A stretch of 64,000 nt of DNA, taken from the NCBI GenBank assembly GCA_016288795.1, contig JAEELI010000017.1:85856-149855 (forward strand), read 5' to 3'. Positions 4,357 to 64,000 of the stretch are shown here, piece after piece. Below the pieces are notes generated by a model. That model saw only the letters and a list, made by a program, of their open reading frames with translations. It ran no database searches and was not told the origin of the DNA. How positions within the stretch are numbered: position 1 is the stretch's first letter; the number at the start of each line of letters is the position of its first letter. The DNA comes from Bacillales bacterium. GTDB taxonomy: Bacteria; Bacillota_I; Bacilli_A; RF39; UBA660. Made by a program: the position numbers and the translations under genes.

Positions 4357-4822
4357 TAATGGTATGTTTATAAGATTATTAGAATGTATTAATAATGATA
4401 GAGAAGCTTTTGATTTATTAGTTAAGGCGGATAATACTTTGGGATTAGATATGACTACCGAAGATATTATTAATTATTTGGAGTTTACTAATGTTAATTC
4501 TTTATTATCTAAAGAATTAACTAGTCATATCATTATAACTGAAGGAGATATATTAAGTGTTTTAAAAATAGTTCATGATATAGTTAGTTACAGAGGAGAT
4601 TATATTCTATTTATTAATGAGGATAATGCTGGCACAATTACATATTTAGTAAATAAATCTAATGATATATATGGTGAATATAATTTAGATGTTAAGATTA
4701 ATATTGATTATAGTGCTAATTATAATAGATATGTAGATTCTTCTGTAGATATAATAGGTAGTGAAATATTTGTTAAGACAGCATCTAAAGATTTTAATAA
4801 TCCTAATTTAATAATAGTGTAA
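4349..4822 (+). CDS. hypothetical protein, 157 aa, translationally coupled to upstream ORF
   Basis: ATG overlaps upstream TAA (ATGATTAATAATGG); no recognisable domain. Confidence 0.45.
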   Translation: MINNGMFIRLLECINNDREAFDLLVKADNTLGLDMTTEDIINYLEFTNVNSLLSKELTSHIIITEGDILSVLKIVHDIVSYRGDYILFINEDNAGTITYLVNKSNDIYGEYNLDVKINIDYSANYNRYVDSSVDIIGSEIFVKTASKDFNNPNLIIV

Positions 4823-5627: not shown

Positions 5628-5985
5628 ACTTATGACGATTCGGTAAGTTAAGAGAGATAAAGAATTCTTTAGTCTCTCTTTTTAAATGACCAATTTTACC
5701 AATTAATTCACTATCTAAAGGCTTTCGATAATGATTTATCTCCAAGAAAAGCAATTGCCACTCTAGATATAAATCATAATTAATTTGTTCTATTTTATGT
5801 AAAAGTTTATGACTAGTTCTGGATAGAATAGCGCCATTATCTACAGATTCAATGCCCCCATTTCTTTTTTCTAATATATGATGATAGGAAACATAATTCT
5901 TTTGAGTAATTTTATATCCCATCCAATCAGTTTTAGGATTTCCATATATCCTCAACATATCTTCCATAATTTGTCTATTTTTCAT
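5617..5985 (-). CDS. small HNH endonuclease-family protein
   Basis: YHHI...NGG...N...L.RTSHKLLH arrangement resembles HNH nuclease core (His-Asn-His). Confidence 0.5.
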   Translation of the reverse strand: MKNRQIMEDMLRIYGNPKTDWMGYKITQKNYVSYHHILEKRNGGIESVDNGAILSRTSHKLLHKIEQINYDLYLEWQLLFLEINHYRKPLDSELIGKIGHLKRETKEFFISLNLPNRHKFIV

Positions 5986-7499: not shown

Positions 7500-7730
7500 A
7501 ATTTTTAAGGCGGAACAAGACAAGTAAATTAAAATAGTTTTAAGAGAGTTAGTGATTGGTGAAAACTAATAAATGATGTTTAATTTATATCACTTGGGAG
7601 CTAATTATTTGAAATATAGTAAAATAATTCGTTGATGGCGTTAACATATAGAGATGAATAATTCATGAATTAAGGTGGTACCACGGGTTTACTCGTCCTT
7701 AAGTTATGAATTTTTTTAATTTTTAGAAGG
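7500..7730 (+). promoter_or_regulatory. T-box riboswitch leader of ileS
   Basis: Stem I element AGAGAGTTAGTGATTGGTGAAAACTAATAAATG; T-box sequence AATTAAGGTGGTACCACGG at ~7669-7687 followed by U-rich terminator. Confidence 0.75.
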
Positions 7731-7737
7731 GTGATTT

Positions 7738-10700
7738 ATGAAAAATTTTGAAAGTCTAGATGGAAGAGAAGTTCATTTAGTAGAAAAAGACATTCGCGAA
7801 AGATGGCAAAAAGAAAATATATTAGATAAATGTATTGAGAACCGAAAAGATAATGATAATTGGGTGTTTTATGATGGACCAATTTATGCTAATGCAGCTC
7901 CAGGTATCCACCACGTATTTGCTAAAACAATTAAAGATGCTTTTTGTAAATATAAAACAATGCAAGGATATCGTGTTTTAAGAAAGATTGGGTTGGATAC
8001 CCACGGATTACCAATTGAAGTTAATGTAGAAAAGAAATTAGGTTTTACAAGTAAGGCTGATATTGAAAAATTTGGAGTAGAGAACTTTTGTAAAGAATGT
8101 AATAAAGCAACAGCAATCAATATTGGAGAAATAAATAAAGTTACTGATATGATGGGCCAATTCATTGATTGTGATAATCCTTATGTAACATGCTCAAATG
8201 ATTATATAGAATCTGAATGGTGGATTATTAATGAATTAAATAAAAAAGGATTAATATACCATGGCTCTAAGGTTTTACCTTATTGTCCTCGTTGTGGAAC
8301 TGAACTTTCTTCAAATGAAGTAGCTCAAGGTTATGAAAGTGTTTCTGTAAATACTGTCATAGTGCCATTTAAATTAGTAAATGAAGATACTTATGTACTT
8401 GTTTGGACAACTACACCTTGGACATTAATGGCAAATGTGGCACTTTGCGTTAATCCAAGTTTAGAATATTTAAAAGTTCAATCAATGGGCTATAACTTCA
8501 TTGTTGGAGCATCTCTAGCTAATTCTGTTTTAGGAGATGAATATGAAGTTTTAGATAAATATAAAGGCAAAGACTTAGTAGGATTAAAATATGAACAATT
8601 ATTACCTTTTGTTAAAGTAGAAGGAAAATCTTTTGAAATAGTTGCTGATAATTATGTTACAGATTCTGATGGAACAGGTATTGTTCACATAGCTCCTGCA
8701 TATGGTGAAGATGACAATCGTGTTTGTCGTGAAAATGATATTACTTTTATAAATCCAGTTGGAAAAGATGGAAAATATAATGAAGGTCCTTGGAAGGGTA
8801 GAGTTGTTACATCTTCAGAGTTAGAATTAGATATTATTAAATATTTAAAAGAAAATGATAAATTATTCAAAAAGATTAAAATGACTCATGATTATCCACA
8901 TTGTTGGCGTTGTAAAGAACCATTAATTTATTATGCTAAACCAGCTTGGTATGTAAAAAATACTAAATTAAAAGAAGAAATAATAAAAGAAAACAATAAA
9001 ATTAATTGGTTCCCAGCATATGTTGGTGAAAAACGTTTTGGTAACTGGTTGGATAACATGATTGATTGGAGCATTTCTCGTAATCGTTACTGGGGATGTC
9101 CACTTCCTATTTGGACTTGTGAATGTGGAAACTTTGAATCAATTGGTTCATTAGACGAATTACAAGAAAGACTAATTGAAGATATAGATGTTAGAAAAAT
9201 AGAATTACATAGACCTTATGTAGATGATTTACATATAAAGTGTTCTAAATGTGGAAAAACAATGGAAAGAGTTAAAGATGTTATGGACGTTTGGTTTGAC
9301 TCAGGGGCAATGCCATATGCTCAATTCCATTATCCATTTGAAAATAAAGAGTTATTTGAAAGTCAATTTCCTGCAGATTTCATTGCCGAGGGAATAGATC
9401 AAACTAGAGGATGGTTCTATGTTTTACTAGTAATATCTACACTATTAAGTGGTAAGTCTTCATTTAAAAATGTTGTTGTTAATGATATGATGCTAGATAA
9501 AAATGGCAAGAAAATGAGCAAATCACTTGGTAACATTGTTAATCCAGTGGATATTATGACTAAATATGGAGCAGATGAAGTTAGATTCTATTTAATGTAT
9601 GCCAGCCCTGTATGGACACCATTAAAGTTTGATGAAGAAGGCATAAAAGAAGTTCATTCTAAATTCTTTAATCCATTTAAAAACACTTATAATTTCTTCA
9701 GCATGTATGCCACTACTGATAATATTGATATTAAAGATTGTCAAATTGCAGTTAAAGATAGGGAAGAAATTGATAAATGGTTATTATCAAGATACAATTC
9801 TTTATTAAAGAATGTTTACAATAGTTATGAAGAATACGATCTAAATAAAGTAGTTAAATATGTAACAAACTTTGTATCCGATGATTTATCTAATTGGTAT
9901 ATTAGAAGATGCCGTAATCGTTTCTGGGGAAGTGAATTGAATAATTCTAAAAAATCAGTTTATATAACTACTTATGAAGTTTTAGTAGGATTATCAAAGA
10001 TAATCGCTCCAATAACTCCATACATTTCTGAAGAAATATATACAAAACTAACTAAAGAATATTCTGTTCATACTTCAAATTTTCCTAAATTTGATGAGAA
10101 ATTGATAGATTTAAAACTAGAAGAAAAAATGGATTATGTTAGAAATTTAATTTCTATGGGAAGAATGGTTAGAGAAGAATCTAAAATTAAAGTTAGAACT
10201 CCATTAAGTGAAGCAATTATAGATAAAAATATCTATGATAAAATATCTGATTTAATACCATTAATAGAAGAAGAATTAAATGTTAAAAAGTTAGTTAAAG
10301 AAGATAATCTATCTAGGTATATGAATATGACTATTAAACCAAACTACAAAGTAGTTGGGCGTATATTCGGTTCTAAATTAAAAGAATATGAAGAATTCTT
10401 AAGTTCTTCAGATATAGATGAATTAAATAAAGAAAATGTAGTATTCAACGGAACTACTATAACTAAAGATATGTTTGAAGTTAAAATATCTTCTAAAGAA
10501 GGATTTAATGTTGGAGTTTTAAATAATCTATTTATAGTTTTAAATACTAATTTAACTGAAGATTTAATAAATGAAGGTCATGCTAGGGAATTCGTTTCTA
10601 AGATTCAAAACATGCGAAAAGAAAATTCATTTGAGATTAGTGATAGAATAAATATTTATTATAGTAGTTTAGAATTTAAACCAATAGTTGATCATTTTGG

Positions 10701-10815
10701 AGATTATATTAAAAAAGAAACTTTAGCAATTAATATAGTTGAAAAAGATAACTTAAAAAATGAATTATCTGTTAATGGCATAAAAGTCCTAGTAGATATT
10801 GAAAAAGCAAAATAA
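7738..10815 (+). CDS. ileS: isoleucyl-tRNA synthetase
   Basis: HIGH-type motif (PGIHHVFAKT), KMSKS motif, 1025 aa, zinc-finger Cys clusters. Confidence 0.92.
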   Translation: MKNFESLDGREVHLVEKDIRERWQKENILDKCIENRKDNDNWVFYDGPIYANAAPGIHHVFAKTIKDAFCKYKTMQGYRVLRKIGLDTHGLPIEVNVEKKLGFTSKADIEKFGVENFCKECNKATAINIGEINKVTDMMGQFIDCDNPYVTCSNDYIESEWWIINELNKKGLIYHGSKVLPYCPRCGTELSSNEVAQGYESVSVNTVIVPFKLVNEDTYVLVWTTTPWTLMANVALCVNPSLEYLKVQSMGYNFIVGASLANSVLGDEYEVLDKYKGKDLVGLKYEQLLPFVKVEGKSFEIVADNYVTDSDGTGIVHIAPAYGEDDNRVCRENDITFINPVGKDGKYNEGPWKGRVVTSSELELDIIKYLKENDKLFKKIKMTHDYPHCWRCKEPLIYYAKPAWYVKNTKLKEEIIKENNKINWFPAYVGEKRFGNWLDNMIDWSISRNRYWGCPLPIWTCECGNFESIGSLDELQERLIEDIDVRKIELHRPYVDDLHIKCSKCGKTMERVKDVMDVWFDSGAMPYAQFHYPFENKELFESQFPADFIAEGIDQTRGWFYVLLVISTLLSGKSSFKNVVVNDMMLDKNGKKMSKSLGNIVNPVDIMTKYGADEVRFYLMYASPVWTPLKFDEEGIKEVHSKFFNPFKNTYNFFSMYATTDNIDIKDCQIAVKDREEIDKWLLSRYNSLLKNVYNSYEEYDLNKVVKYVTNFVSDDLSNWYIRRCRNRFWGSELNNSKKSVYITTYEVLVGLSKIIAPITPYISEEIYTKLTKEYSVHTSNFPKFDEKLIDLKLEEKMDYVRNLISMGRMVREESKIKVRTPLSEAIIDKNIYDKISDLIPLIEEELNVKKLVKEDNLSRYMNMTIKPNYKVVGRIFGSKLKEYEEFLSSSDIDELNKENVVFNGTTITKDMFEVKISSKEGFNVGVLNNLFIVLNTNLTEDLINEGHAREFVSKIQNMRKENSFEISDRINIYYSSLEFKPIVDHFGDYIKKETLAINIVEKDNLKNELSVNGIKVLVDIEKAK

Positions 10816-27773: not shown

Positions 27774-27850
27774 GTTCTTGTAGCTTAGTTGGATAAAGCG
27801 GATGCCTCCGACGCATCAGATTGAGGGTTCAAATCCCTCCAAGAACACCA
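27774..27850 (+). tRNA. tRNA-Arg (anticodon CCG), CCA encoded
   Basis: cloverleaf folded by hand: acceptor GTTCTTG/CAAGAAC, D-stem GCTT/AAGC, anticodon stem GATGC/GCATC with loop CTCCGAC, T-arm GAGGG-TTCAAAT-CCCTC. Confidence 0.85.
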
Positions 27851-52438: not shown

Positions 52439-52515
52439 GGCGCTGTAGCTCAGCTGGCTAGAGCATCCGGTTCATACCCGGCAGGTCGAGAGTTCGAATC
52501 TCCCCGGCGCTACCA
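52439..52515 (+). tRNA. tRNA-Met (anticodon CAT), elongator type, CCA encoded
   Basis: hand fold: D-arm GCTC-AGCTGGCTA-GAGC, anticodon loop TTCATAC, T-loop TTCGAAT, G1:U72 so not initiator; Ile2-lysidine tRNA not excluded. Confidence 0.8.
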
Positions 52516-59998: not shown

Positions 59999-60886
59999 AT
60001 GGAAAAACCTAAAGTTTATTGGACAAAAGAAATAACTGCAGAGAGTTTAATAAAAATATATGAGGCCCTTGGAGTTACTTTAAAGGGAAAAGTTGGAGTG
60101 AAAGTTTCAACTGGTGAGAAAGGATCTAAAGGATATTTAAAGGCAGATTTAATCGGGCCATTAGTTAAAAAGTTAAATGGAACTATATTAGAATGTAATA
60201 CTGCCTATCCTGGAAAAAGAAACAATGCTAAAGACCATTTAAAAGTTGCCGAAGAGCATGGCTTTACTTCTTTTGCTGAAGTAGATATTATGGATGCTAA
60301 AGGCGATTTTAAAATACCTGTTCATAATGGAAAACATTTAAAATATGATCTAATTGGAGAAAATTTTAAAAACTATGATTCAATAATAAATTTAGCTCAT
60401 GGAAAAGGCCATGCAATGGGAGGCTTTGGCGCTAACCTTAAAAATCAATCAATAGGTATTGCGTCTCGTAAGGGTAAAGCTTATATTCATTCATGTGGTA
60501 AAACAGAGAGTCCAACACTTTGCTGGGTATCTAAACATGATCAAATAGATTTTATTGAAAGCATGGCTGAGGCTGCTAAAGCTGTCAGCGATTATATAAA
60601 AGAAAATAATAAGCAAATAGTTTATATAACTGTTGCCAATGCTTTATCTGTAGACTGTGATTGTGATGCTCACCAAGGAGATCCAGTAATGAATGATATC
60701 GGCATATTTGCATCTTTAGATCCAGTAGCAAATGATCAAGCATTTATTGATGCTATATGGATCAATACTGATCCTGGTAAAGAAGAATTAAAGAAGAGAA
60801 TTGATAGACAGTTAGGTAGAGAAATTCTTCCTTATGCTGAGAGTATAGGATTAGGTTCAACTAACTATGAATTTATTGAAATATAA
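59999..60886 (+). CDS. hypothetical protein, possibly DUF362-like
   Basis: 295 aa; LAHGKGHAMGGFGANLKNQSIG resembles DUF362 conserved stretch; CDCDAH Cys cluster; weak call. Confidence 0.3.
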   Translation: MEKPKVYWTKEITAESLIKIYEALGVTLKGKVGVKVSTGEKGSKGYLKADLIGPLVKKLNGTILECNTAYPGKRNNAKDHLKVAEEHGFTSFAEVDIMDAKGDFKIPVHNGKHLKYDLIGENFKNYDSIINLAHGKGHAMGGFGANLKNQSIGIASRKGKAYIHSCGKTESPTLCWVSKHDQIDFIESMAEAAKAVSDYIKENNKQIVYITVANALSVDCDCDAHQGDPVMNDIGIFASLDPVANDQAFIDAIWINTDPGKEELKKRIDRQLGREILPYAESIGLGSTNYEFIEI

Positions 60887-60973: not shown

Positions 60974-61642
60974 ATGAAAAGAAAAGTTGTATTAAGTCTA
61001 GTATTGGTATTATTAATATCTATGACTATGGGGTGTGCTAGTAAAGCTGGTAAAGATTTTAAAGAAGAATATGAATCTGTTAATGGCAAAGAAAACGCTA
61101 AAGGTTCAATTCATCGTGTAATAGAAATTCCTGAAGATAATCCATATGAAAAAATAACTACTGCTGAGTTATTAAAAAAGATTGATAAGAAAGAAACTTT
61201 TTATGTTTATTTTGGTGATAAGTTATGTCCATGGTGTCGTTCTGTTATTGAAAAATCGATCGAGGTTGCCAAGGATAAAAAAGTTAAAAAAATATATTAT
61301 ATTAACATTTGGGATGACGAAGGAAATGAAATATTAAGAGATAAATATGAACTAGTTGATGGCAAACTTAAAAAGACAATTAAGGGAACAGATGACTATA
61401 AAAAATTGTTAAAAATATTTGATAAAGTTTTAACTGATTATAACTTAACTGATGAAAAAGGAGAAAAAATATCTACTGGTGAGAAGAGAATATTTGCTCC
61501 TAATTATATGTTTGTTGAAAAAGGAAAAGTTAAGAGTTTAGTTACAGGTATTTCAGAAAAACAAAAAGAATCTAGAGAAGAATTAACAGATGAAATTTTA
61601 AAAGATGAAGCAAAAATATTTAAAGATTTCTTTAAAAAATAA
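60974..61642 (+). CDS. thioredoxin-like lipoprotein with CPWC motif
   Basis: lipobox MTMGCAS after signal peptide; redox motif CPWC in FYVYFGDKLCPWCRS context. Confidence 0.55.
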   Translation: MKRKVVLSLVLVLLISMTMGCASKAGKDFKEEYESVNGKENAKGSIHRVIEIPEDNPYEKITTAELLKKIDKKETFYVYFGDKLCPWCRSVIEKSIEVAKDKKVKKIYYINIWDDEGNEILRDKYELVDGKLKKTIKGTDDYKKLLKIFDKVLTDYNLTDEKGEKISTGEKRIFAPNYMFVEKGKVKSLVTGISEKQKESREELTDEILKDEAKIFKDFFKK

Positions 61643-61726
61643 TTAAGTAAGAATTAAGCAAGTTATTCTTGCTTTTTTATTTGCTTTGTTATATAATACC
61701 TTCCATATCAAAAAGGGGGTTTTGAT

Positions 61727-62542
61727 ATGAATAATAATAGTTATATAATTACAGATAATATCTTAAATAAAATATCTAGTATTATGAAAAGCTTAGGATC
61801 AATAAGCAATAGTTTTTATGAAGTAAATGTAAATAAAAACTTAAACTATCTATTTAAAATGGAAGGTATAAAAGATGAAGATTTTATATCCAAGTATACT
61901 CAGGTATATAATGATTTAGATAACATAAATATTAATGATTTCTTTTCTAAATTAAAATATCGTGAGTGTAATTTAAAAGATACTTTTACTCACCCAAGAG
62001 TAGAATTAATTCCTAATTTATTTTCTAATTTAAATACCTTCATTAATCACACTGGTGACACTCATCCATTTTTGATGGCATCATTATTCTACTATGGGTT
62101 TATTTTTATTAGTCCATTTGAAGATAACAATCACATAGTAGCAATGGTATGGTTAAATAAATATTTGAGAGATTATAATGAAGCATTTAAATATTTGTCT
62201 TTAGAGTCTTACATATATAAATATAAGGTTGAGTACTATGAGTCATTAAAAAGTGATAAGACATTTATCGATTTTTTATTAAAGATAATTGACTTAGCAT
62301 TAAAAGATTTATTATCTCATCCTATATATATAGAAGATAAGTTTTTGAAAGTTGATAAATTATTAAAGGTTATGGAAAAGAACAAACCAATGACTGCATA
62401 TGAGATAATGAATAAATTAAATATTAAATCTAAAGAAACTTTTAGAAATTCATATTTAAATTATGCCATAGAAGAAAAATTAGTTAATTTAACAGTTCCA
62501 GATAAACCAACTAGTAGGAATCAAATGTATTATAAAGTATAA
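61727..62542 (+). CDS. Fic/Doc-family-like protein with degenerate active-site motif and C-terminal winged-helix
   Basis: HPFLMAS...SPFEDNNHIVAM in place of canonical HPFx[DE]GNGRxxR; C-terminal KPMTAYEIMNKLNIKSKETFRNSYL wHTH-like. Confidence 0.45.
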   Translation: MNNNSYIITDNILNKISSIMKSLGSISNSFYEVNVNKNLNYLFKMEGIKDEDFISKYTQVYNDLDNININDFFSKLKYRECNLKDTFTHPRVELIPNLFSNLNTFINHTGDTHPFLMASLFYYGFIFISPFEDNNHIVAMVWLNKYLRDYNEAFKYLSLESYIYKYKVEYYESLKSDKTFIDFLLKIIDLALKDLLSHPIYIEDKFLKVDKLLKVMEKNKPMTAYEIMNKLNIKSKETFRNSYLNYAIEEKLVNLTVPDKPTSRNQMYYKV

Positions 62543-62546
62543 GATA

Positions 62547-62575
62547 AGAGTCTGACTATAGACTCTTTTTTTTGA
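62547..62575 (+). terminator. terminator after Fic-like gene
   Basis: AGAGTCTGACTATAGACTCTTTTTTTT hairpin + U-tract. Confidence 0.7.
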
Positions 62576-62595
62576 CAAAAATCGACAAAAGACTA

Positions 62596-62623
62596 TTGAC
62601 AAAAAAAAATTATTTGGTAAGAT
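62596..62623 (+). promoter_or_regulatory. candidate sigma-A promoter for sortase operon (second TTGACA 24 nt upstream)
   Basis: TTGACA, 16-nt spacer, TAAGAT; duplicated TTGACA at 62572-62577. Confidence 0.4.
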
Positions 62624-62817
62624 ATGTCCTTAACAGGGGGTTTATGGTTTCTATATGTCTCCATAAATCTAAAAATATATTTAGAAAATATGTATTATTT
62701 TTTAGGCTAACAATATAATAAGTAATGTTGGTCAAACAAATTTTAAAAACATGAATAAAAAACAAAATATTTAAACATTAAATATTTGGATATTTAGAAA
62801 TGGAGATGTAGGTTATA

Positions 62818-63531
62818 GTGAAGAAAAAAATTATTCTTATAAGTTTAGCTTTACTATTAGCAATGATTGAAATTCTAGTTATACCTATAGGTTCAAAAGA
62901 CATTGTCTTATTAGACACGGTAGTGGCGGAATCTAAAAAAGAAAATGAACTAGGATATGAAGTCAAAGCCGCCAAGGAAAAATATAAAAATGATGATATA
63001 GTTGGTTTATTAGAAATACCTAATACCACTTATAGAACTTTAGTCCCGCAGGGAGATAATAATACATTTTATTTATCTAGAGGATTAGATAAAAAGAAGA
63101 ATAAAATAGGAACTCCATTTTTAGATTATAGAGTCGACTTGGACTCATCTAAAAAGTTATTAATATATGGACATAATTCTAGATATACAGAAATGCCTTT
63201 TCAAATATTAGAAGAATATTATGATGAGTCTTACTTGAAAGAACATCGATATATAATTTTAAAAACAGAAAGCAAAACAAATATATATGAAGTATTCTCG
63301 GTCTTCATTGAAACTAAAGATTGGACTTATACCAATATAAAATTTAAAGACGATGATGATTGGTTAGAGCATATCAATAAGCTTAAAGAAAAATCAATTC
63401 ATAAAACTGATATTGAGCTTAATAAGGATGATGAAATTTTAGTTCTGCAGACGTGCTCGACGAAAAAAGAATATTTAAAATTTAAAAAGAAATTTTTATT
63501 AGTTATAGCAAGGAAGGTTGATAATATATGA
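62818..63531 (+). CDS. srtB: class B sortase
   Basis: GTG start; signal anchor; catalytic motifs LLIYGHN (His) and ILVLQTCS (TLxTC Cys) typical of SrtB. Confidence 0.65.
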   Translation: MKKKIILISLALLLAMIEILVIPIGSKDIVLLDTVVAESKKENELGYEVKAAKEKYKNDDIVGLLEIPNTTYRTLVPQGDNNTFYLSRGLDKKKNKIGTPFLDYRVDLDSSKKLLIYGHNSRYTEMPFQILEEYYDESYLKEHRYIILKTESKTNIYEVFSVFIETKDWTYTNIKFKDDDDWLEHINKLKEKSIHKTDIELNKDDEILVLQTCSTKKEYLKFKKKFLLVIARKVDNI

Positions 63532-64000
63532 AAAAGATATTAACTAACATAGTGTTGTTTTTATTAATGTCATTTGTATTTATTCCAAACATTCATGCTG
63601 AAATAAATGTTGATAATGTCAACAATGTAGAAGCAGTTGAAGAAATAGTTACAAGTGATGACTTAATAAATACAGAAGAGGAAATTATTGAGGAAGAAGA
63701 GGAAGAAAAAGAGACAGCTGAAGATGAAGCTGTAGAAGAGTTAACAGACACTGTTTCTGAACAAGCAAATCAAACCGCTGAAACAGAAGAAGTTGGAACG
63801 ACAACTGAAACTGAAGAACCAGTTATGACATTAGCAGCATCTGATAATGCTTCTAGTAATGATGAAGGAAGCGGAAATAATAATTATAATGTTAAATTTT
63901 GGACAAATGATAATAAGCATTATATTGCAGGTGTTGAAAGTGTTAGTCTTTCAACATTAAACGAAAAATTATCTTTGAATATTAATTTAAATAATATTAC
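63528..64000 (+). CDS. secreted acidic protein (Glu/Thr-rich), 3'-truncated at window edge; possible sortase substrate
   Basis: ATGA overlap with sortase stop; signal peptide MKKILTNIVLFLLMSFVFIPNIHA; EEEEEKETAEDE acidic tract. Confidence 0.5.
   Translation, partial: MKKILTNIVLFLLMSFVFIPNIHAEINVDNVNNVEAVEEIVTSDDLINTEEEIIEEEEEEKETAEDEAVEELTDTVSEQANQTAETEEVGTTTETEEPVMTLAASDNASSNDEGSGNNNYNVKFWTNDNKHYIAGVESVSLSTLNEKLSLNINLNNI

Follow-up and report, generated by a model that had tools for sequence, protein, structure and literature searches.

A Fic-like protein with a degenerate active site, a conserved winged helix and a repeat array at its own promoter in a Bacillales bacterium

The protein considered here is encoded in a 64,000-nucleotide (nt) stretch of DNA, hereafter the window, which corresponds to positions 85,856 to 149,855 of the forward strand of contig JAEELI010000017.1 (GenBank assembly GCA_016288795.1) from a Bacillales bacterium (GTDB lineage Bacteria; Bacillota_I; Bacilli_A; RF39; UBA660) with a chromosome of 26% G+C. 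It is a degenerate Fic protein of 271 amino acids (aa), recognized by its open reading frame (ORF), Pfam matches, structure match and alignment, and is specified by positions 61727..62542 of the forward strand, with an ATG start and with the end coordinate including the stop codon. Comparison with its relatives indicates that its enzymatic activity has very probably been lost, leaving a catalytically dead protein. Beyond this, the reading that we favor, at a probability of about 0.5, is that a SoFic-like protein without catalysis has been kept as an autoregulatory DNA binder, which uses a tandem repeat array located directly before the -35 element of its own gene. The ancestor would have been a class II Fic AMP-transferase of the SoFic type, which was trimmed and stripped of catalysis, such that the extant protein would no longer modify any target. 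It would function instead through its C-terminal winged helix, probably as a dimer held together by an N-terminal helix (residues 10-25), with the winged helix binding TTAAGYAAG repeats of 11-base-pair (bp) period that abut the -35 element and thereby regulating its own transcription; other genomic sites may be regulated as well. The outcome would be a former toxin or defence enzyme cut down to its DNA-binding half.

The Fic fold and its degenerate active site

Profile and structure comparisons agree on the family to which the protein belongs. In Pfam it matches Fic-like_C (PF21247) over residues 208-268 with E=5.9e-17 and Fic (PF02661) over residues 78-147 with 27.0 bits, a small margin over the gathering score of 24, while in NCBIfam the sole match of the 271-aa protein, far below threshold, is SoFic. 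4rgl_A, which aligns over residues 90-268 (E=1.2e-19), is the closest relative of solved structure. An AlphaFold2 model computed from a 57-sequence alignment has a mean predicted local distance difference test (pLDDT) score of 84.6, and the top Foldseek matches of this model in the PDB are all Fic proteins, namely 4rgl (E=8.7e-15), followed by SoFic, CbFic2, 7xux, 7cb8, FICD and IbpA-Fic2. By fold and profile, the window protein is thus a member of the Fic/Fido superfamily, in the 4rgl/Fic-like_C subfamily, and in the model the helical core of the Fic fold is retained. An earlier first-pass annotation, made from the DNA sequence alone, had named it a Fic/Doc-like protein and held that a missing Fic fold would speak against this assignment; the profile match to PF02661 and the superposition on known Fic folds both bear the assignment out.

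A search of 5.8 billion proteins recovered 88 relatives, most of which are about 330 aa in length and carry a canonical HPFxDGNGRxAR motif. In the window protein this position, as defined by alignment to 4rgl and the relatives, is occupied by the degenerate loop SPFEDNNHIVAM (residues 129-140; 62111..62146, forward strand), which lies opposite HPFxDGNGRxAR of 44 canonical relatives and pairs residue for residue with the intact motif HPFADGNGRMGR of 4rgl. The catalytic histidine is replaced by serine, the two glycines by asparagine and histidine, and the two arginines by isoleucine and methionine, with P130, F131, D133 and N135 as the only survivors. The protein consequently lacks the active-site motif HxFx[D/E]GN[G/K]R with its catalytic histidine, as the first-pass annotation had recognized in stating that the histidine and GNGR are replaced. 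The same annotation had, however, taken the 'HPF' at residues 113-115 for a part of the motif, and this is actually the conserved HPL(I/L) opening of the preceding helix, which is found in all relatives.

The losses extend beyond the loop itself. Where canonical relatives carry the flap ESGxFRxGxEGVFDGxxCIF (GxFRxxxxGV), the alignment of the window protein has a gap of about 22 residues, and the AlphaFold2 model has no hairpin at this position. Most of the N-terminal inhibitory region of the canonical relatives is also missing, and what is left of it is a vestigial inhibitory helix at residues 36-47 (61832..61867, forward strand), which was located by alignment and is modelled as a helix over residues 36-46. 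Here LFKMEG stands in place of the canonical SLAIE[AN], such that the serine has become leucine, the glutamate is kept and its arginine partner is gone. Direct reading of the whole protein yields no [ST]xxxE[GN], and the inhibitory (S/T)xxxE(G/N) helix whose presence the first-pass annotation had considered is hence reduced to this vestige at the homologous position; with it the protein lacks the feature that defines class II auto-inhibited Fic proteins. Because the motif is degenerate, the flap deleted and the inhibitory helix vestigial, the protein is in all likelihood catalytically dead, and the loss of AMPylation predicted earlier is well supported by these three changes. The N-terminal helix at residues 10-25 (61754..61801, forward strand), in contrast to the inhibitory region, is predicted with a pLDDT of about 95 and is conserved with the canonical relatives. 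By its position we infer that it corresponds to the helix used for dimerisation in SoFic, CbFic2 and CccR, Fic proteins with a winged helix-turn-helix (wHTH) in which an N-terminal dimer helix has been described (PMC10628234, PMC9755527, bioRxiv 10.64898/2026.07.09.737422).

The window protein does not stand alone in these features. It belongs with P0002, P0003, P0043, P0062, P0076, P0078, P0079 and P0087 in a clade of nine short proteins (240-283 aa), all of which have the same deletions, while the degenerate loop is different in each (e.g. KPFNNYNGIIAR, NPFDKENEKIIK and YPYNNKNIRLIS); in six of the nine the inhibitory segment is missing altogether. The nine cluster on long branches in a neighbour-joining tree, a placement that long-branch attraction could produce, and on account of the shared deletions and synteny the clade is probably monophyletic, with a common origin of the degenerate state. 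It is also small, given that among 1.84 billion cluster representatives searched with a profile, four from the clade scored 304-350 bits, the next match, at 231 bits, being canonical. Canonical relatives match the PADLOC model of the SoFic anti-phage defence system, with P0009 scoring 139 bits (E=5.2e-41) as against 30 bits (E=7e-08) for the window protein, which by this weak match and its missing histidine falls outside the SoFic defence system.

The existence of the clade allows weighing the possibility that the protein is still an enzyme, either with another chemistry in the Fic pocket or with relocated catalytic residues. Fic folds do host several chemistries, Doc being a kinase and AnkX a phosphocholine transferase, and P130, F131, D133 and N135 persist in the loop. 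However, the loop differs in every clade member, and both phosphate-binding arginines and the anion-hole glycines have been lost. Further, the invariant residues of the clade within positions 1-205 are hydrophobic, with H113 as the sole invariant polar residue, and no alternative conserved polar cluster is found in this region. For want of such a conserved polar constellation, the idea that catalysis had moved to a relocated or different motif in another part of the sequence was rejected; the first-pass annotation had noted that an intact motif of this kind would tell against its proposal. To our knowledge, the motif histidine is needed in all Fic chemistries, and retention of enzymatic activity in some other form appears very improbable.

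The pattern of conservation within the clade is equally informative. Mean pairwise identity is 71% in the C-terminal domain as against 21-38% elsewhere (about 30% in the Fic core), whereas among the canonical relatives it is 64% in the C-terminal domain and 55-83% elsewhere. Between the window and locus L041, the degenerate Fic protein is 38% identical overall, as compared with 77% for the neighbouring DUF362 protein and 54% for the sortase. Judged by these identities, the Fic core is weakly constrained, to an extent sufficient for maintaining the fold, while constraint on the C-terminal domain is normal and strong. Such a fast-evolving core, together with the frequent loss or disruption of canonical members (loci L020, L025, L027 and L037, besides sites with scars), might be taken to mean that the protein is a functionless, decaying relic, which is open by chance or was inactivated recently. 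This is improbable in view of at least nine diverged members with the same architecture and a C-terminal domain conserved as well as ordinary housekeeping neighbours, of a Shine-Dalgarno sequence, promoter and terminator that are intact, and of a fold that is confidently predicted. Indeed, simple decay is ruled out because the ORFs are full-length in all clade members, in AT-rich genomes (about 26% G+C), in which a random frame is soon interrupted.

The profile search of cluster representatives also yielded degenerate members of the wider family that lie outside this clade. A second short group (P0126, P0141, P0157 and P0198, with loci L165-L167; 254-261 aa) has loops such as TPLSEEEFGVSI, and among P0090, P0091, P0095, P0108 and P0139 there are proteins of about 310 aa with partly degenerate motifs (NPFGSNNAIMAR, QPFRDNNDKMAR, HPFSEGNEKMAR). 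Since these members are diverse, the distribution suggests that catalysis was lost repeatedly in the subfamily, with the C-terminal domain being kept. When covariation of protein and operator was examined, the loci of P0126, P0157 and P0198 had no upstream motif in common.

The C-terminal winged helix and the repeat array at the promoter

Strong conservation in the window protein is confined to the C-terminal winged helix. It is encoded at 62348..62530 of the forward strand and is defined by the match to PF21247, its identity within the clade and its model; the C-terminal 72 residues, modelled alone, give a pLDDT of 89.9 and a helix-strand-helix-helix-strand-strand topology. The domain superimposes on the C-terminal domain of 4rgl with a template-modelling score of 0.77 and a root-mean-square deviation of 1.9 Å, and weaker structural matches comprise the winged helices of PadR, TubR, MarR/SarZ and Z-alpha. 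With an isoelectric point of 9.7 it is basic, as compared with the acidic remainder of the protein (5.5). Its invariant residues (S235, K236, E237, T238, R240, Y243, K260, T262, S263, R264 and Q266) map to helix 3 and the wing, through which a wHTH domain usually contacts DNA. The winged-helix tail proposed in the first-pass annotation is therefore present, although it is typical only of a SoFic/4rgl-like subset and not of the Fic family as a whole. Among the roles which that annotation had listed for the protein, i.e., pseudo-enzyme, scaffold or a derivative resembling a transcription factor, the last is best supported, on account of the constraint on the wHTH, the array at the gene's own -35 element and the precedents among wHTH-Fic proteins.

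The same domain could alternatively act through protein contacts, with the C-terminal domain and scaffold serving as a decoy or antagonist that heterodimerises or competes with active SoFic-type toxins, or that binds their target or a phage trigger. Dead paralogues that act as antagonists are a frequent theme among pseudoenzymes, the canonical relatives match the SoFic defence model as noted for P0009, and the N-terminal helix is retained; additionally, SoFic toxicity requires both dimerisation and an interaction of the C-terminal domain with the catalytic domain (PMC12249575). Nevertheless, the flap which would dock the target is deleted, the 64-kb window contains no canonical paralogue, and the domain is basic, with its invariant residues on DNA-contacting surfaces. 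Such an antagonist role is unlikely on this balance.

The upstream region of the gene offers a candidate for the DNA that the winged helix would bind. The stop codon of the preceding gene is immediately followed by the tandem direct repeat TTAAGTAAG-AA-TTAAGCAAG (61643..61662, forward strand), which has a period of 11 bp and the consensus TTAAGYAAG(AT), and is the only exact tandem of this kind in the 64 kb. It is followed by a promoter candidate, TTGCTT-17 nt-TATAAT (61669..61697, forward strand, by direct reading), with the -35 hexamer at 61669-61674 and the -10 hexamer at 61692-61697. The -35 hexamer begins 6 nt past the last repeat, a spacing that is equal in the canonical relatives. An automated promoter scan missed this promoter, as TTGCTT matches the -35 consensus at only three of six positions; the gap that had been described as promoter-less thus contains a promoter with the repeat array directly before it. 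A strong Shine-Dalgarno sequence, AAGGGGG (61713..61719, forward strand), is read 7 nt 5' of the ATG. Direct repeats of 11-bp period next to a -35 element recall the binding sites of winged-helix regulators of the PhoB/OmpR type, and with this layout activation is as possible as repression.

The array is a feature of the subfamily rather than of this locus. In two to three copies, it stands 6 nt before the -35 element in the window and loci L001, L002, L041 and L042, as well as in some 30 canonical loci, and the geometry array-6 nt-TTGxxx-17 nt-TATAAT recurs in about 30 loci. Overall, in two to six or more copies, it precedes the -35 element of nearly all genes of the Fic/Fic-like_C subfamily (L001-L042 and L043-L162), the canonical carriers being spread over many genomes of uncultured Bacilli, Mollicutes-like organisms and Clostridia. 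Across 479 kb of loci there are 40 tandem matches on the gene strand and none on the other strand, as compared with 0.03 expected from first-order Markov simulations. Even the divergent P0084 (L163), from a genome of higher G+C content, has four copies of a variant repeat, TATGTAAGAT, with a period of 12 bp directly before TTGACT-17-TATAAT. On these grounds the TTAAGYAAG array is a candidate operator, or else a cassette-boundary element, of the Fic/Fic-like_C subfamily.

Two terminators are found in this region. That of the upstream thioredoxin-like lipoprotein gene is a hairpin at 61656..61674 (forward strand), with a 7-bp stem followed by a T run, whose 5' arm is the second repeat and whose 3' arm is the -35 hexamer. 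The Fic-like gene has its own intrinsic terminator at 62546..62575 (forward strand), comprising a hairpin at 62546-62567 with a 9-bp stem, a 4-nt loop and a T run, in agreement with the strong terminator that had been noted before. Rfam searches, at gathering scores over the whole window and in E-value mode over 61500-62900, found nothing relevant near the gene.

Array-bounded cassettes and the genomic neighbourhood

The wider distribution of the array shows that it is not confined to promoters of Fic genes. Some canonical genes have a second array at the stop codon (L003, L019 and L035), with the stop lying inside the array, and the paired arrays of one locus share peculiarities specific to that locus. 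Metagenome contigs scanned for an array of two copies gave at least 120 loci. Among the 120 array loci listed, about 50 have a family gene 44-92 nt downstream, and in eight of these another array is found at the stop codon. L093 has the array and then a terminator behind a UvrD-like helicase gene, with the last three Fic codons still in place, and L014 represents the same site with a promoter and Fic gene inserted right after the array. At other sites only about eight terminal Fic codons, the array and a terminator remain. Judged from these comparisons, the canonical genes behave as strain-variable, array-bounded cassettes, as would fit a defence or toxin gene, and with such behavior the array may be an operator, a recombination junction, or both. 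Three further observations on this distribution may be recorded, i.e., that canonical relatives occur as presence/absence cassettes in gut metagenomes, that the canonical relatives of about 330 aa also match several PHROG families of unknown function, and that L160 has an expanded array beside an integrase-like ORF. The window protein has no match in PHROGs.

Several points weigh against the view that the degenerate protein is kept as a DNA binder with the array as its operator. First, about 65 of the 120 array loci listed have no Fic gene, many of these Fic-less arrays sit between a gene's stop codon and its terminator, and some of the sites are allelic 'empty' versions of occupied ones (L093 versus L014; L090 versus L009); the array could hence be a cassette junction or scar, or a site of another protein, rather than the operator of this one. 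In terms of a promoter-binding site, a conserved tandem repeat does abut the -35 element, but the array is also present at Fic-less sites. Second, the array at the gene's own promoter is the only one in the window, where no target besides the gene itself was identified. Third, the repeats are direct while the operator of CccR is palindromic, which makes for a less simple fit to a symmetric dimer. Fourth, EcSofic's C-terminal domain also contributes to toxicity (PMC12249575), and conservation of this domain in canonical proteins therefore need not mean DNA binding alone. Finally, the ratio of nonsynonymous to synonymous substitution rates in the only close triplet, L042/L105/L076, at about 0.55, derives from seven differences in total and is uninformative.

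These points can be assembled into a scenario in which the protein binds DNA, while the array is the junction or scar of a mobile SoFic cassette or the site of some other host factor, and the real targets lie elsewhere, for instance in the adjacent sortase and surface-protein operon. In its favor, some Fic genes are flanked by arrays on both sides (L003, L019, L035 and eight more loci) with the locus-specific similarity of paired arrays mentioned above, perfect arrays occur at the empty sites L093 and L090, sites with just the last codons of a Fic gene plus array and terminator exist, and the expanded array of L160 lies next to an integrase-like ORF. On the other hand, the distance between array and -35 element stays fixed at 6 nt amid very different flanks, even where the repeat is a variant one, which speaks for a promoter element. 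For the sortase operon as the target, all six evaluable clade members lie next to the 5' end of an operon for a sortase and/or a giant surface protein, in either of two orientations, being co-directional in L001 and divergent in L002, L041, L042, L105 and GCA_016648615.1. However, neither the window nor L001 has an array-like site (allowing one mismatch at most) at the promoter of the sortase operon, and direct control of that operon via the array is therefore unsupported. Further, DUF362 and PedC-like genes are likewise conserved neighbours, and the sortase adjacency could reflect a functional link or merely inherited synteny. Taken together, we consider it rather unlikely that the array is foreign to the protein and its targets are elsewhere. 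A different combination of the same facts would have the arrays bounding the gain and loss of SoFic-type cassettes in gut Firmicutes, and the dead protein acting in trans from the chromosome, much like a prophage repressor, as a self-regulating repressor or immunity factor that silences resident or incoming cassettes; this possibility is distinctly unlikely. Retention of the dead protein as a regulator of its own gene stays the preferred reading.

The immediate neighbourhood comprises, in order, a DUF362 gene (59999-60886), a gene for a thioredoxin-like lipoprotein (60974-61642), the Fic-like gene and, after a gap of 275 nt, the genes for a sortase (PF04203; 62818..63531, forward strand), which is a conserved neighbour in the clade, and for a secreted acidic surface protein with the signal peptide MKKILTNIVLFLLMSFVFIPNIHA (63525..64000, forward strand), whose ORF continues past the end of the window. 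The surface-protein gene opens with an ATG at 63525, four bases ahead of the end of the sortase stop codon, and this overlap of the two genes (63525-63531) suggests that the sortase and its probable substrate are translationally coupled. Among the 38 loci of the genome-contig scan, the great majority of which carry canonical relatives, none has a sortase, and a homologue of the window sortase was found in none of them. A small downstream ORF was considered as a relative of the 47-aa antitoxin EcAS1 and rejected, there being no evidence of homology and the ORF lying behind the terminator of the Fic-like gene.

The region 5' of the sortase operon has some features of its own. Three TYGACAAAA repeats are found at 62572-62601, represented by TTGACA at 62572, TCGACAAA at 62582 and TTGACA at 62596, the last being the -35 element. 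The TCGACAAA box before the -35 element is kept on the minus strand in L041 (about 5655-5690) and L042 (about 4615-4660), reading TTTGTCGAA on the other strand, and it presumably resembles a Spo0A box (TGNCGAA). The loci of relatives also carry the spore-coat genes CotJB and CotJC. The leader of the sortase/surface operon (window 62632-62718; L001 4850-4894) has a conserved strong Shine-Dalgarno sequence and start codon, CAGGGGGTTTATGGTT, leading into a short ORF, which is 24 aa in the window (MVSICLHKSKNIFRKYVLFFRLTI) and 11 aa in L001, where its stop codon and the surface-gene start overlap as ATGA. This short ORF, which has no Rfam match, could encode a leader peptide. Farther away in the window are a T-box leader at 7504-7703 (115 bits), directly 5' of a 1025-aa ORF at 7738-10815, and two tRNA genes (27774-27847 and 52439-52512). 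Nearly all large ORFs of the window are on the forward strand and the GC skew is positive throughout, which suggests that it is a leading-strand chromosomal segment.

Relationship to known Fic proteins

Fic proteins have been studied almost wholly as enzymes, in the form of toxins, effectors and the SoFic anti-phage system. The present locus appears to be a natural case of separation of function, in which the active site, flap and inhibitory helix have been removed and the winged helix and promoter-proximal repeat have been kept by strong constraint, and this would imply a role of its own for the DNA-binding half of wHTH-Fic proteins. The 11-bp array provides a testable operator candidate for the whole SoFic-like subfamily in gut Firmicutes, and the pattern of its presence and absence suggests a route by which defence-like genes are gained and lost. 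In the literature searched, we found no report of wHTH-Fic proteins forming a trimmed clade that has neither flap nor inhibitory helix, or of the 11-bp array, nor a description of how the array-linked SoFic-like genes of gut Firmicutes are regulated. Should the protein merely regulate itself, it would be a modest example of pseudoenzyme exaptation. A dead enzyme is in itself only mildly surprising, and the family-wide array and the cassette behavior are the more useful leads.

Fic folds without the canonical motif are known, and several of their clades have been predicted to be inactive (PMC4454073; F3/D1, Khater and Mohanty 2015). AvrB, the Bartonella Beps with degenerate FIC motifs and clades F3/D1 likewise combine a Fido fold lacking HPFx[DE]GN[GK]R with a predicted loss of AMPylation; they differ from the window protein in that they are effectors for secretion or toxins of the Doc type, with accessory domains of other kinds, and none has been reported to be a slimmed-down wHTH protein in which flap and inhibitory helix are both missing. 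The closest counterpart by both sequence and structure is 4rgl (Dde_2494), a Desulfovibrio Fic protein from structural genomics and the parent of the Pfam family Fic-like_C, which has the same order of a Fic core followed by a C-terminal winged helix. It is 343 aa long, with a full N-terminal region and with HPFADGNGRMGR intact, whereas the window protein has neither catalytic residues nor flap and retains just a remnant of the inhibitory helix.

Precedents for DNA binding come from three wHTH-Fic proteins. CbFic2 of Coxiella burnetii is a class II Fic protein that dimerises via its N-terminal helix and whose C-terminal wHTH binds DNA (PMC10628234), but it is an active AMPylase and deAMPylase of histone H3, and its DNA binding is largely non-specific and switches enzyme activity. 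SoFic and EcSofic are class II Fic AMP-transferases with a C-terminal wHTH that constitute a single-gene anti-phage defence (PADLOC SoFic), with an N-terminal helix, Fic domain and wHTH in the same order as in the window protein. As a dimer, SoFic binds to the promoter of its own gene, no farther than 100 bp from the start codon (bioRxiv 10.64898/2026.07.09.737422), and the H194A mutant of EcSofic is non-toxic, indicating that the motif histidine is essential (PMC12249575). The window protein differs from them in the absence of this catalytic histidine and in its C-terminal domain, which in Pfam belongs to Fic-like_C, a family other than SoFic-like_C. The Yersinia pseudotuberculosis protein CccR is both a Fic toxin and a transcription factor, whose HTH represses its own promoter, with regulation and toxicity reported to be independent and separable (PMC9755527), and this Fic-wHTH protein offers the functional precedent for a regulator that is free of catalysis. 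CccR itself is, however, catalytically active, and it recognizes a split palindrome, AGATAATCAT-N26-ATGATAATCT, which overlaps the -35 and -10 elements, whereas the candidate site here consists of two to three copies of a direct repeat, spaced at 11 bp, that lie upstream of the -35 element. By analogy with these proteins, the mode in which the degenerate Fic protein works may resemble the regulatory half of CccR or SoFic.

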